Shown here: positions 2,633-6,446 of the stretch, one piece after another
Position numbering within the stretch: position 1 is the stretch's first letter
Layout: the number at the start of each line of letters is the position of its first letter
DNA from: Vulcanimicrobiota bacterium
GTDB lineage: Bacteria > Vulcanimicrobiota > Vulcanimicrobiia > Vulcanimicrobiales > Vulcanimicrobiaceae
DNA length: 31,156 nucleotides
NCBI GenBank assembly: GCA_003135555.1
Contig: PLCF01000054.1
Location: 96,049 to 127,204, forward strand
Reading direction: 5' to 3'
The notes under the pieces: generated by a model
The model's input: the letters and a program-made list of their open reading frames with translations, nothing else
The model's database searches: none
Told to the model about the DNA's origin: nothing
Made by a program: the position numbers and the translations under genes

Positions 2633-3754
2633 TCACGATGCCTTGGGGCGCCGGTAGAACGGCAGCGGCGTCACGACCGCGGCGTGGCGTACGCCGCGGA
2701 CCTCGACCTCCAGCGCCGTCCCGTCGGGCGCGGCGAGCGGCTCGACCAGCGCGGTCGCGATGTTCTTTCCAACCGCCGGCCCGAACGAACCGCTACGGAC
2801 CTCGCCCGCTTGCGTCGCGCCCGCGAATACGGGGTAGCCGGCGCGGGCCGGAACGCGGCCCTCCATGGTGAGCCCGACGATGCGCGCGTAGTCGCCGGCG
2901 TCGCGCTGCGCGAGCAGCGCTTCCTTGCCGCAAAACGCCGGCTTGTCGAACTTGATCGCCCATGCGAGGCCGGCTTGCAGCGGGGTGATCTCCTCGGTCA
3001 TCTCGTGTCCGTACAGCGGCATTCCGGCTTCGAGCCGCAAGACGTCGCGCGCGCCGAGCCCGCACGGCGCCAAGCCGCGCTCGCGATTCTCGGCCAGCAG
3101 CAGATCCCACACGCCGGTCGCCTCGTCCGACGGGAGAAACAGCTCGAAGCCGTCTTCACCGGTATAGCCGGTGCGCGCGATGAGGATCGGCGCGCGCGTA
3201 CCTTTGACGCGCGTCTCGGCGCACGAGTAGTATTTCATCGCGGCGAGCTCGGCCTCGACGTACGGCTGCAGCCACTCGACCGCGCGCGGTCCCTGGATCG
3301 CGACGAGCGCGCGCTCGCCGTGCAGGTTCTCGAGCTCGACGTCGCCGGCGCGCTCGGCACTCACGTGGGCCCACATCTTGTCGGCGTTCCCGGCGTTGAC
3401 GACCAGCAACCAGCGCTCGTCGCCGAGCCGGTAGAAGATCACGTCGTCGTGCGCACCGCCGCGCTCGTTGGTGAAGATGTTGTAGCGCGCTTGACCGCCC
3501 TTCATGTTCTCGACGTTGTTCACGGTCAGCGTCTCGGCCCAGGCACCGACGCCGGCGCCGCGCAGCGCGAACTGCGCCATGTGCGACAGGTCGAACAAGC
3601 CGGCGCGTTTGCGCACCGCCTCGTGCTCGGCCAGGATGCTCGTGTACTGGACCGGCATCTCGAAGCCGCCGAAGGGGACGATCCGCGCACCGAGCGCTCG
3701 GTGCGCGTCGTAGAGCGCGGTGCGGCGCAGCGTGCCGCCGATCTCGGTCGTCAT
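2633..3754 (-). CDS. gcvT: Glycine cleavage system aminomethyltransferase T
   Basis: RTALYDAH, FGGFEMPVQY, GLFDLSHM, ARTGYTGEDGFE, CGLGARDVLRLEAG. Confidence 0.97.
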   Translation of the reverse strand: MTTEIGGTLRRTALYDAHRALGARIVPFGGFEMPVQYTSILAEHEAVRKRAGLFDLSHMAQFALRGAGVGAWAETLTVNNVENMKGGQARYNIFTNERGGAHDDVIFYRLGDERWLLVVNAGNADKMWAHVSAERAGDVELENLHGERALVAIQGPRAVEWLQPYVEAELAAMKYYSCAETRVKGTRAPILIARTGYTGEDGFELFLPSDEATGVWDLLLAENRERGLAPCGLGARDVLRLEAGMPLYGHEMTEEITPLQAGLAWAIKFDKPAFCGKEALLAQRDAGDYARIVGLTMEGRVPARAGYPVFAGATQAGEVRSGSFGPAVGKNIATALVEPLAAPDGTALEVEVRGVRHAAVVTPLPFYRRPKAS

Positions 3755-3766
3755 ACTCGGAGCCTG

Positions 3767-4657
3767 CTACGCGAACACGTCCCCGTCCTTCGCCAGTTCG
3801 CGCCGCAGATACAACGGGAGGGCGAACAGTCGCCGGTGGGTCTCCGCGTCGTAGAAGAAATTCTCGCCGCGCAGGCCGCCGACGTACGTATCGATACGCG
3901 CCGGATCGGTCGCGGCGACGTCGACGTCGTCGCTGCAGGCGATGAACGCCCAGTCGTTGTCGAAGGCCGGGACGTGCGCGTAAAAGCTGCGCACGTGACC
4001 GAAGAACCGCAGCAGCGAACGCGCCATCTTGGCGTGGAGCGCCATGTTGTGGAAGCCCGCGGTCGAGGCTTGCAGCACGTATACCCCGCGCGGAGCGAGC
4101 CGCAATTTGACGTCGGCGAAGACCTCGCCGTTGAAGAGCGGGAACGACGGCGAGTCGGCCAGCGGCTCGGTGAGATCGCTGATCACCACGTCGTAGCGGT
4201 CGCGGTCCTCCTTGAGGAACGTGAGCGCGTCGCCGATGATCACGCGGGCTCGCGGGTCGTCGAAGGCGCCGTCGGACCATTCGGGCAGAAACCGCTTCGC
4301 TAGCTCGACCACCTGTCCGTCGATGTCGACCATGGTGCAGCGGCGCACGCCCGGCGCGCGCAAGACCTCGCGCAGCGTGGCGCCCTCGCCGCCGCCCAGA
4401 ATGAGCACCTCGGAGCGCCTGTCGACCGACGCCAGCGCGGGGTGAACCAGCGACTCGTGATAGATCTTCTCATCGGCCTGGGACGACTGCGTGTCGCCGT
4501 CGAGAACGAGCATCTTGCCGAAGACCGCGGTACGCAACACCGCGACCGACTGGAACTGCGTCCTCCCGGCGAAGTACGTTTCGTCGATCGCATGCGCGTG
4601 CAGCTCCGTTGGAGCGAACTGCTCGGTGTACCACTGATAGTGCTCGGTTTTCGGCAT
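3767..4657 (-). CDS. speE: Polyamine aminopropyltransferase (spermidine synthase family, GGGEG type)
   Basis: LDGDTQS, YHESLVHPA, VLILGGGEGATLREVL, MVDIDG, YDVVISDLTEP; ATG at 4657. Confidence 0.92.
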   Translation of the reverse strand: MPKTEHYQWYTEQFAPTELHAHAIDETYFAGRTQFQSVAVLRTAVFGKMLVLDGDTQSSQADEKIYHESLVHPALASVDRRSEVLILGGGEGATLREVLRAPGVRRCTMVDIDGQVVELAKRFLPEWSDGAFDDPRARVIIGDALTFLKEDRDRYDVVISDLTEPLADSPSFPLFNGEVFADVKLRLAPRGVYVLQASTAGFHNMALHAKMARSLLRFFGHVRSFYAHVPAFDNDWAFIACSDDVDVAATDPARIDTYVGGLRGENFFYDAETHRRLFALPLYLRRELAKDGDVFA

Positions 4658-4791: not shown

Positions 4792-5208
4792 CTAGGCCGT
4801 CGCCATCAGCTCGCGGGTGTCGTTCTCGGTGGTGACGACGTGGGTGAAGCGGTGGTGGCCTGATTCGACCCCGCGTTTCACCTCGGTGGTCAGCATGGTC
4901 TTGGCGTCGAGCGCCTCCGCGGCGTACTCGCACGCCGCCCACGGATCGGTGTGGTCGCCGCACGTGTAGAAGTCCATCGCGGCATAACCGGTCTCCGGCC
5001 ACGTATGAATCGACAGGTGCGACTCCTCGATCACCACCACTCCGGAAACCCCTTGGGGTTGGAAGCGGTGGAAGGCCGTCGTGACGATGGTCGCGTTAGC
5101 CGCTCTCGCGGCGTTCTCCATCATCGCACGGACCGCGTCGACGTCCGTGAGCTTCGCGGCATCGCAGCCGGAGAGCTCACAGACGATATGCGTACCGAGT
5201 GCTTTCAA
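4792..5208 (-). CDS. speH: S-adenosylmethionine decarboxylase proenzyme (short SpeH/class 1B type), TTG start
   Basis: GTHIVCELSGC, HRFQPQGVSGVVVIEESHLSIHTWPE (E-S self-cleavage site), DFYTCG. Confidence 0.92.
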   Translation of the reverse strand: MKALGTHIVCELSGCDAAKLTDVDAVRAMMENAARAANATIVTTAFHRFQPQGVSGVVVIEESHLSIHTWPETGYAAMDFYTCGDHTDPWAACEYAAEALDAKTMLTTEVKRGVESGHHRFTHVVTTENDTRELMATA

Positions 5209-5443
5209 TTCTTTTTCCTGACTCCTCGGGAGCTTTCGGTTGGGAGAATCCCACCTCCAGGCGCGTCGTCCAGCGTGTGCGGTACACCGTCTCGCTGTCG
5301 ACCTATCAGCAGACTCTTGCCGGCACGGTCTCCTTTGGACCGAACGGACGTTCCGCTGCGAAGGCGCGTTGGGCGCGCCGTCCCCTGACCGACTGCCGTG
5401 ATCCCAGGGCTCATAAATGCGCTCCGGGGTCCGTGAAGTCCGT
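5209..5443 (-). promoter_or_regulatory. Long structured 5' leader of speH (candidate cis-regulatory RNA; contains putative uORF 5414-5205)
   Basis: Lies between a clear promoter and the TTG start; several nested helices found by eye; no match to a riboswitch consensus I can recognise. Confidence 0.5.
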
Positions 5444-5448
5444 CGCCA

Positions 5449-5477
5449 ATGGTACCCCCCACGGGGGGCCTTGTAAA
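5449..5477 (-). promoter_or_regulatory. Sigma70-type promoter for speH
   Basis: TTTACA (5477-5472), 17 bp spacer, TACCAT (5454-5449). Confidence 0.75.
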
Positions 5478-5537
5478 TAGCCGCGATTTTGACGAGCGAG
5501 CGGGCCGTCCGCGGCTGCCTCGGCGAAGCCGTCGGCG

Positions 5538-6446
5538 ATGCCCTCCGCGCACGACCGTTCCGTGATCTCCAGCGCCGGCGTGCGCGAGCAGGCGGCCCGT
5601 GCCGGCTCGACGGTCGAGCAGCTCATGGTCGACTTGCTGCCCGCCGCGCAGGCGCTGGCGCGGCCGGCGATCTCGGGGTTCCGGGTCGGCGCGATCGCCC
5701 ACGGCCTCTCGGGGGCGCTGTACTTCGGCGCCAACCTCGAGTTCGTCGGCCAGGCCCTGAGTTGCAGCGTCCACGCCGAGCAAGCCGCCGTCACCAACGC
5801 TTGGCTCCACGGCGAAGCGGGGGTCACGACGATCGCGGTGACCACCGGCCCGTGCGGCTACTGCCGCCAGTTCCTCAACGAGCTGGTTACGGCCGACCGG
5901 TTGAGCATCATCCGCCCGGGGATCGCGAGCGAACCGCTGGCCGCGCTGCTGCCCGCGGCGTTCGGTCCGCACGACCTGGGCGTGCACGGCGGGCTCATGG
6001 AGCGCAGCGCGCACGGCTTGGCGCTCGAGCACCCGCCGGCCGGCGACGAGCCCGATCCCGTCTACGCGGCCGCACTCGAAGCCGCCAACGCGTCCTACGC
6101 GCCCTACAGCCTGACCTACGCCGGGGTCGCCCTGGGGCTCGCGGACGGCTCGGTCGCCGCCGGCCGCTACGCGGAGAATGCCGCCTTTAGCCCCAGCCTG
6201 TCGCCGCTGCAGGCGGCGCTCGCGCGCCTGGCCATTACGGCCGTCCCGTACCGCGAGATCCGCCGGGCCGTCCTGGTGGAGTCGGACGGCGCGGCCAGCC
6301 AGCGAGGGGTCACTGAGACGCTGTTGGCGGGGGTCGCGCCGGGAATCCGGCTGGCGTACGCCCGGGCGGTGCCGGGACCCGTCGGGAGCGCCACGGTGCA
6401 GGCTCCGGCCGGGTTAGATAGTACAGATACGCCTGCACTATCTTGA
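5538..6446 (+). CDS. cdd: Cytidine deaminase (long, E. coli-like two-domain type)
   Basis: [16 protein letters not shown], zinc motifs HAEQ and PCGYCRQF, second domain SYAPYS...[17 protein letters not shown]. Confidence 0.92.
6416..6443. promoter_or_regulatory. Inverted repeat, candidate operator upstream of sufB
   Basis: AGATAGT-A-CAG-N6-CTG-C-ACTATCT; AT-rich in GC-rich DNA; abuts the -35 box. Confidence 0.6.

Follow-up and report, generated by a model that had tools for sequence, protein, structure and literature searches.

Riboswitches that sense polyamines were long predicted and were confirmed only in 2023, when rare variants of the S-adenosylmethionine (SAM)-I aptamer were reported as spermidine riboswitches (Salvail, Balaji, Roth and Breaker; PMC10853860). 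That report describes a four-stem-junction SAM-I fold, represented by 13 examples from Gram-positive genera, which acts through transcription termination as a feedback OFF switch of the pathway. Within the literature searched, the spermidine-sensing SAM-I variant was the only validated polyamine riboswitch found (PMC10853860). Here we describe the leader of speH in a stretch of 31,156 nucleotides (nt) of DNA from a Vulcanimicrobiota bacterium (assembly GCA_003135555.1, contig PLCF01000054.1, positions 96,049-127,204; hereafter the window). The speH gene (4792..5208, minus strand) encodes the small-type SAM decarboxylase proenzyme (Pfam PF02675 AdoMet_dc, E = 7.1e-43) and is the candidate regulated gene; its leader occupies positions 5442-5209 of the same strand, on which all leader features given below are read. 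An original prediction had proposed at this place an undescribed multi-helix RNA, drawn as two multi-junction domains. The speH leader is almost certainly a conserved, structured cis-regulatory RNA, in keeping with that prediction; the two-domain drawing, six of whose eight helices fail comparison with relatives, has to be replaced. As to its function, we lean towards a metabolite-responsive translational switch.

The speH leader shares with the spermidine riboswitch its position as a cis-acting 5' leader of polyamine-synthesis genes that include SAM decarboxylase and, probably, the logic of a feedback OFF switch of the pathway (PMC10853860). Unlike the spermidine riboswitch as described there, it does not match SAM-I and contains no four-way junction; it adjoins the ribosome-binding site with no space left for a terminator, and it occurs in Eremiobacterota and not in Gram-positive hosts. 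Where SAM-I has a four-helix junction closed by P1 and a pseudoknot between the P2 loop and J3/4, the speH leader has a 5' pseudoknot and two tandem branched domains. The original prediction had likewise seen no SAM-I core, and no match to RF00162 was found in the window, in the leader or in its relatives. More generally, the search of Rfam that it had proposed retrieved no relevant family: cmscan gave no match at the gathering threshold over the whole window, only two spurious snoRNA matches at E <= 10 on positions 5100-5600, and nothing relevant at E <= 1 on 10 diverse relatives. Literature searches, beyond the reach of which lie most subscription journals, returned no paper on this RNA. As judged from these model and literature searches, no known RNA family fits the speH leader.

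The riboswitches SAM-II, SAM-V, SAM/SAH, preQ1-II and SAM-III/SMK box are small (about 35-120 nt), pseudoknot-containing aptamers that mask the Shine-Dalgarno (SD) sequence, which lies within the aptamer. Like these, the speH leader contains an H-type pseudoknot and has the SD region directly 3' of the conserved RNA, an arrangement that implies control of initiation. Unlike them, its pseudoknot is one module of a three-domain core of ~150 nt and the element that adjoins this core is an SD mimic; none of the Rfam models of these families matches the window or its relatives. In a further type of control, that of the eukaryotic SAM decarboxylase by an upstream open reading frame (uORF) encoding the MAGDIS peptide and that by E. 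coli SpeFL, the sensor is a nascent peptide in the ribosome. The speH leader concerns the same enzyme or pathway and is a candidate for translation-level control through a 5' leader, so that by analogy a response to polyamines like theirs is conceivable; by contrast with these systems, it holds no conserved open reading frame (ORF). Finally, the original prediction had remarked on a loose echo of a glycine aptamer. The similarity is one of words, GGAG...CCGAA...CAGG, accompanied by a downstream gcvT gene, but the glycine riboswitch model RF00504 gave no match at E <= 10 and neither the closing CCUG/CAGG stem nor the GCUCC/GGAGU hairpin is conserved, the supposed P3 hairpin being deleted in 8 of 30 close relatives. 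The nearby gcvT gene may have prompted the idea of this echo.

Within the genus of the window, the leader is found at 77-91% identity in 32 of 36 genomes, and the four genomes without it are 72-83% complete. Several of its blocks, among them a 26-nt run around GGAGGUGGGA, are invariant in all 30 sequences of the genus alignment (A1; one row, L017, is from an unpublished genome and stands also in alignment A2), while synonymous sites of speH vary across the same comparison. A covariance model of the core (R1; 152 positions, corresponding to 5387-5236 of the window, with L017 again among its rows) detected one full-length copy in 136 of the 151 genomes of the family sample and in 70 of its 78 genera, or in 126 of 141 genomes when ten unpublished ones are set aside. 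It should be noted that the raw tallies on the genus, family, class and phylum samples include some unpublished genomes, whereas the statistics on A3, an alignment of 92 family representatives all of which are full-length R1 matches, are free of them. In the class sample, R1 matched 114 of 115 genomes of family f1 and 3 of 3 of its sister family f2, and 0 of 32 of the next family f3. In the phylum sample, it matched a single genome among 79 from the 19 families f3-f21, weakly (E 0.036), and 65 of these 79 have speH; the gene itself is present in 136 of the 151 genomes of that sample, including 9 of 9 from f3. When R1 was run with its filters off on the speH loci of 10 genomes from other families, only noise was returned (best E 0.043). 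The sole high-quality, near-complete f1 genome devoid of the RNA is also devoid of speH. The constant link to genes of one pathway that marks a riboswitch is present, since speH follows immediately in all of the 92 cases fetched, its start codon 10-29 nt 3' of the core. As speH alone is always associated with the RNA, the most plausible effector is a compound connected with the decarboxylase step, that is, decarboxylated SAM (dcSAM), spermidine or a related polyamine, or SAM.

Application of RNAalifold to A1 gave a fold unlike the one originally drawn. Comparison among relatives resolves the leader into a 5' hairpin, a small H-type pseudoknot, two branched stem domains, the Box1 hairpin, the true SD and the UUG start codon. 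The 5' terminal hairpin, P0 (5389..5442), is the variable part: it has an outer stem GACU (5440-5437)/AGUC (5394-5391) and an inner stem at about 5430-5403 (pairs 13-16/65-69 and 26-30/53-57 of the RNAalifold fold of A1), the distance between the -10 box and the core varies from 10 to 99 nt, and the sister family has no P0, its -10 box being 10 nt away from the core. The pseudoknot (5363..5384) comprises the S2 hairpin GGCGCG (5379-5374)/CGCGCC (5368-5363), which the original prediction had already drawn and which is paired in 100% of A1, and the S1 helix, in which GGG (5384-5382), 1-2 nt upstream of this hairpin, pairs with the first three nucleotides of its loop, CCC (5373-5371). In A3, S2 shows double changes in 6 of the 8 pairs of helix 1, with 97.8% of cells paired. 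The three S1 pairs are canonical in 92 of 92 sequences, a count somewhat favoured by picking the register (1- or 2-nt linker) for each sequence; on the tree they switched four times independently from G-C to A-U or U-A, without exception. Four sequences with the loop CCU carry AGG upstream and one with the loop ACC carries GGU. An extension of the GGCGCG hairpin by GA/UC was considered and rejected, as five sequences were seen by eye to have AUAG for AUCG with no matching change upstream.

After the pseudoknot comes the junction AUCGC, which reads UUCGC in the window. The P2 domain (5307..5358) is closed by P2, CAGCGGA (5358-5352)/UCUGCUG (5313-5307), and encloses P2a (5349-5347/5321-5319 and 5345-5344/5324-5323), the inner irregular hairpin P2b, CGGUC (5342-5338)/GACCG (5330-5326), and the conserved internal-loop strand GGCAAGAG (5321-5314). 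Its helices 2-4 changed on both sides in 16 of 17 pairs of A3, with 91-98% of cells paired and 8-12 Watson-Crick switches per pair at several positions. The junction J2/3, AUAG (5306-5303), opens the next element (5265..5306), in which P3, GUCG (5302-5299)/CGAC (5268-5265), encloses P3a, CAGCG (5297-5293)/CGCUG (5275-5271), and P3b, CGG-UGUA-CCG (5289-5280). Here helix 5 has double changes in 8 of 9 pairs of A3, and every one of 91 sequences has a canonical pair at 162-212, where 10 switches were counted; outside the genus, P3a contains two conserved non-canonical positions, G.A in 59 of 91 and A.C in 50 of 91. A linker of 3-5 nt joins the P3 domain to Box1. Conservation is not confined to the helices: of the 148 consensus positions, 35 reach a conservation of 97% or more, and many of these are unpaired or in junctions; near-invariant junction nucleotides (AUCGC, GGCAAGAG and AUAGG) join the parts of the core.

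The statistics agree with this fold. In A3, 93.1% of cells are paired, a percentage inflated by the fitting of A3 to the structure of the model, compared to 85.2% in shuffles (0 of 500 reach the observed value) and 28-54% when partners are slid against each other; 31 of 44 pairs changed on both sides. Because of this fitting, events were also counted by parsimony on a tree of speH coding sequences (CDS), a check that allows for relatedness, and 139 switches from one Watson-Crick pair to another were obtained, up to 12 of them at one pair. The frequent G.U pairs identify the structured strand as that of speH. A structured domain of the 5' untranslated region that is supported by covariation, as in riboswitches, is therefore present in these genomes, and the conservation and covariation among homologues on which the original prediction had depended do exist, though for a different fold. 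All eight complementary segment pairs that it named lie where it placed them and every pair is canonical in the window. As a whole, however, that drawing has a covariation of 0.070 in A1 against 0.069 in shuffles, a value attained by 102 of 500 of these. Besides the GGCGCG/CGCGCC hairpin, only GGGA/UCCC is retained, again with 100% pairing in A1. The outer helix CGGACU/AGUCUG clashes with the strongly covarying P2, of which AGUCUG is the 3' strand (6 of 7 pairs compensated), and CGGACU pairs locally with AGUC(G/C)G (5394-5389), closing P0. The stem CGGCA-GU-CGGUC/GACCGUGCCG breaks into CGGCA/UGCCG, 80.5% paired, and CGGUC (5391-5387)/GACCG, 69.3% paired (63.3% for the fifth pair apart); GACCG pairs instead with the adjacent CGGUC (5342-5338), a pairing for which the genus alone provides 9 compensatory cases. 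As for the remaining helices, two pairs of GGAC/GUCC, within GGACG/CGUCC, are open in 6 and 4 of 30 sequences, or 10 unpaired cells in all; CCUG/CAGG has many gaps and pairs in 77.8% of cells; and in 8 of the 30 sequences GCUCC/GGAGU is deleted.

Immediately 3' of the core lies Box1, GGAGGUGGGA (5258-5249, within an element at 5238..5261), an invariant SD-like block that follows a CCU. The hairpin in which it takes part, GGUGGGA (5255-5249)/UCCCAACC (5245-5238), is 95-97% paired in A3 and has as its 3' strand a C-rich candidate anti-SD tract. The word GGAGGTGGGA is found in 92 of 92 sequences, 35-52 nt ahead of the start codon. Box1 holds a 7-nt SD word, GGAGGUG, which we take to be a perfect 7-nt complement of the usual anti-SD at the 3' end of the 16S rRNA, yet no start codon stands at a usable distance from it in all members. 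In the 3.57-Mb genome the 10-mer GGAGGTGGGA has three occurrences, a single one of them before a gene start; it is therefore not a general leader. A Box1-like word with a complementary pyrimidine tract also precedes speH, at a distance of 25-95 nt, in 38 of 50 genomes of other families; these 38 represent 13 of 16 families and are all devoid of the core, although one of these matches, at -87, may be due to chance. In one other family, the hairpin is compensated in a different register, GGUGAG/CUCACC. Judged by this distribution, Box1 is older than the large domain. In many other families, a conserved ribosome-binding block, approximately AAAGGGGUGGCUUGCC, lies ~20 nt before the speH ATG and is followed by AUG; this block resembles Box1 (GG-GGUGG), so that two similar purine boxes flank a CUCC tract.

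The true ribosome-binding region (5206..5233) contains the SD GAGGAG (5227-5222) and the start codon UUG (5208-5206), the starts having been set by tblastn alignment of speH. Among relatives the true SD is GAGGAG or AAGGAG, an SD-like word is present at -20..-4 in 91 of 92 sequences, and the start codon is UUG in 82, GUG in 5 and AUG in 5 of the 92; families outside the order mostly start speH with AUG. The hairpin GCUCC (5233-5229)/GGAGU (5225-5221) in this region is optional, as it is missing in 8 of 30 genus sequences. In many folds of minimum free energy (MFE), a CCGAG overlapping the SD is paired to CUCGG of speH codons 4-5 (in the window, 5209-5235 with 5190-5200), and relatives with Arg-Gly at these codons pair CCCG with CGGG instead; such a pairing would place the SD and start codon within a loop. 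According to these computed folds, CCGAG/CUCGG may be a further masking helix. Since there is no room for a terminator between the core and speH, control must act on initiation or stability, and the entry of the leader 3' end into the ribosome-binding region fits translational control.

If the speH leader is a metabolite-responsive translational switch, we infer that it would bind an effector through its core and operate as follows. As long as Box1 holds the C-rich tract, the true SD would be free and speH translated. Binding of the effector by the core would capture or rearrange Box1, and the freed C-rich tract, or another local element, would then mask the SD/UUG region and lower translation. 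The effector may be spermidine or a related polyamine, or dcSAM, acting in feedback; SAM acting in the opposite sense is also possible. In the order to which the window belongs, the state of the switch made of SD mimic, anti-SD tract and SD would thus be set by the upstream core. We know of no riboswitch for dcSAM. A more specific proposal, which we put forward tentatively and rate as somewhat less than probable, is that the leader represents a new riboswitch class of one order of Eremiobacterota, in which a pseudoknot-plus-two-domain aptamer of ~150 nt for dcSAM or spermidine was grafted onto an older, phylum-wide switch of SD mimic (GGAGGUGGGA), anti-SD and true SD.

Several observations weigh against control by a metabolite-binding core. 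Box1 and its hairpin precede speH also in families that have no large domain, so that the switch may answer to the ribosome, to a protein or to bulk polyamines and not to the core. The SD mimic, the C-rich tract and the true SD are all present, but a conserved, mutually exclusive pairing of these elements could not be demonstrated among relatives, and local structures near the SD vary among genera. Neither column covariation nor candidate helices examined by eye revealed a conserved pairing between the core and Box1, and the coupling of the two is for this reason conjectural. An all-against-all analysis of column covariation, noisy from clade-specific changes, returned no long-range partner for Box1, AUCGC or CACGG, and the comparative fold supports no closing P1 helix. 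To the inflated pairing percentage of A3 must be added the folding energies. The original prediction had itself held that an energy no better than that of dinucleotide-shuffled controls would tell against it, and such is the case of the leader: the single-sequence fold of 5460-5195 has an MFE of -102.9 kcal/mol, the mean of the shuffles being -100.7 (z = -0.43); of 200 shuffles, 65 fold at least as stably. The cores of 12 family members gave z from -2.78 to +0.47, with a mean of about -0.9 and two of the 12 below -2. These weak single-sequence values are not decisive: a GC-rich sequence will fold well whatever its order, and the evidence from comparison is strong.

Four candidate long-range helices were tried and rejected. 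The pairing of 5' CCGGAC with GUCCGG before Box1 is absent from the genus of the window and from several other genera, that of UCGGU(U) with AACCGA is found in the genus only, and that of the P2b loop CACC with GGUG of Box1 is absent from the genus. A P1 of 5' GGGG and the 3' C-tract turned up in several MFE folds, but the sequences with AGG carry their compensating change in the pseudoknot loop, whereas the C-tract shows none.

The main rival explanation, which we consider rather unlikely, is that the leader is an operator for a trans-acting macromolecule. This could be a repressor protein that binds at the junctions or at Box1, or the 30S subunit, for which Box1 would be a decoy or standby site; in the latter case its hairpin and the upstream domain would set the exposure of Box1 and, through it, how readily the weak UUG is reached. 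Such an operator would account for a Box1 that is invariant in 92 of 92 sequences, constrained to 35-52 nt from the start, and present in those 38 of 50 genomes of other families that have no big domain. Moreover, the register of the hairpin varies and GGAGGUG itself does not, and this invariance against a changing partner points to recognition in trans. On the other hand, no conserved adjoining regulator gene was seen, the upstream neighbour of the leader differing between genus genomes, and a multi-helix pseudoknot core of 150 nt, with 35 near-invariant positions and attached to one enzyme gene only, is what one would rather expect of a metabolite aptamer. The same core bears on the proposal that the leader does not switch at all and is a constitutive element, either a stabilising 5' structure or a translation enhancer of a highly expressed mRNA. 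A strong, consensus-like promoter, the 5'-terminal hairpin P0 and the failure to establish a thermodynamic signature of alternative folds would all be in keeping with that. Nevertheless, P0 is the least conserved part of the leader and is lost from the sister family, the conserved part is a complex core with invariant unpaired nucleotides, and the SD mimic, the anti-SD-like tract and the weak start codon are hard to explain by stability alone. Since the 5' hairpin is the least and the unpaired junctions are the most conserved, a purely structural leader is improbable.

Regulation by a leader peptide, to which the RNA structure would be secondary, is nearly excluded, and we give it only the slightest chance. 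The original prediction had placed a uORF in the leader, and the window does contain an ORF that runs from an ATG at 5414 to a TGA overlapping the TTG start of speH. However, of 30 genus sequences 20 have an ATG near 5414 and 10 do not; this ATG lies inside the variable, indel-bearing hairpin P0, and the overlap of the TGA is lost where the gene starts TTGG. Neither the start nor the frame of a small ORF is kept across relatives, as would be expected for a leader peptide. Core lengths differ by non-multiples of three and fall into all three classes modulo 3 (37, 27 and 28 sequences), which means that there is no coding signal, and by inspection the frames and lengths read from an AUY after Box1 differ between families.

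The leader is preceded by a promoter-like site (5449..5477) with a -35 box TTTACA (5477-5472), a G/C-rich spacer of 17 nt and a -10 box TACCAT (5454-5449), found in a consensus scan as 1 site compared to 0.1 expected. From this site, TTTACA-17-TACCAT at 5477-5449, a transcript start at about 5443-5441 is predicted, in agreement with the start near 5442 proposed originally. Genus-level conservation sets in abruptly at 5481, at the -35 box, and continues through the leader into speH, and the sequence further upstream varies by genome. Of 92 family members, 88 have the pattern TT[TG]ACA-N16-18-TANNNT, whose spacer averages 67% G and contains runs of 5-8 G. On the strength of these patterns, the speH promoter is unusual in combining a near-consensus TTTACA -35 box and a TAnnAT -10 box with a G-rich spacer. 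The strict promoter pattern occurs only 4 times in the whole genome of the window, only once with a G-rich spacer, and the -35 box is retained even in AT-rich families of the phylum. Regarding transcription, metatranscriptome contigs from 3 of 4 soil runs cover parts of 5116-5406, one contig being identical over 159 nt; in the four runs, 5476-5560 is uncovered and one contig continues into promoter sequence. These matches are a weak hint of transcription, because DNA carry-over is possible and contigs cannot give ends.

At the locus, a cytidine deaminase gene upstream of the leader is divergently oriented (start at 5538), and downstream of speH, on the same strand, lie the spermidine synthase gene speE (3767-4657) and then gcvT (2633-3754), encoding the T protein of glycine cleavage. 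A terminator-like hairpin with a U-run (4734-4720, minus strand) separates speH from speE, and no more than 25 of 51 related loci have speE 3' of speH, so that any control by the leader is probably limited to speH. Several public contigs of metagenome-assembled genomes, titled Limnocylindria, Binatia, Acidoferrum/Acidiferrales or Alphaproteobacteria, carry a speH 73-93% identical to that of the window, and these are probably mislabelled or mis-binned Eremiobacterota.

Should the leader prove to be a new aptamer class for dcSAM or spermidine, polyamine synthesis would have just its second natural RNA sensor, with no structural relation to the earlier one. As about 90% of the sampled family genomes retain it, the leader would offer a directly testable candidate ligand-RNA pair (spermidine or dcSAM) in a phylum known almost entirely from metagenomes; it would also shed light on the control of polyamine synthesis in uncultured lineages and illustrate, in compact natural form, the coupling of an aptamer to an SD mimic. 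If the control depended instead on a protein or on the ribosome, the phylum-wide, invariant SD look-alike before speH would still represent an unexplained element of translational control.

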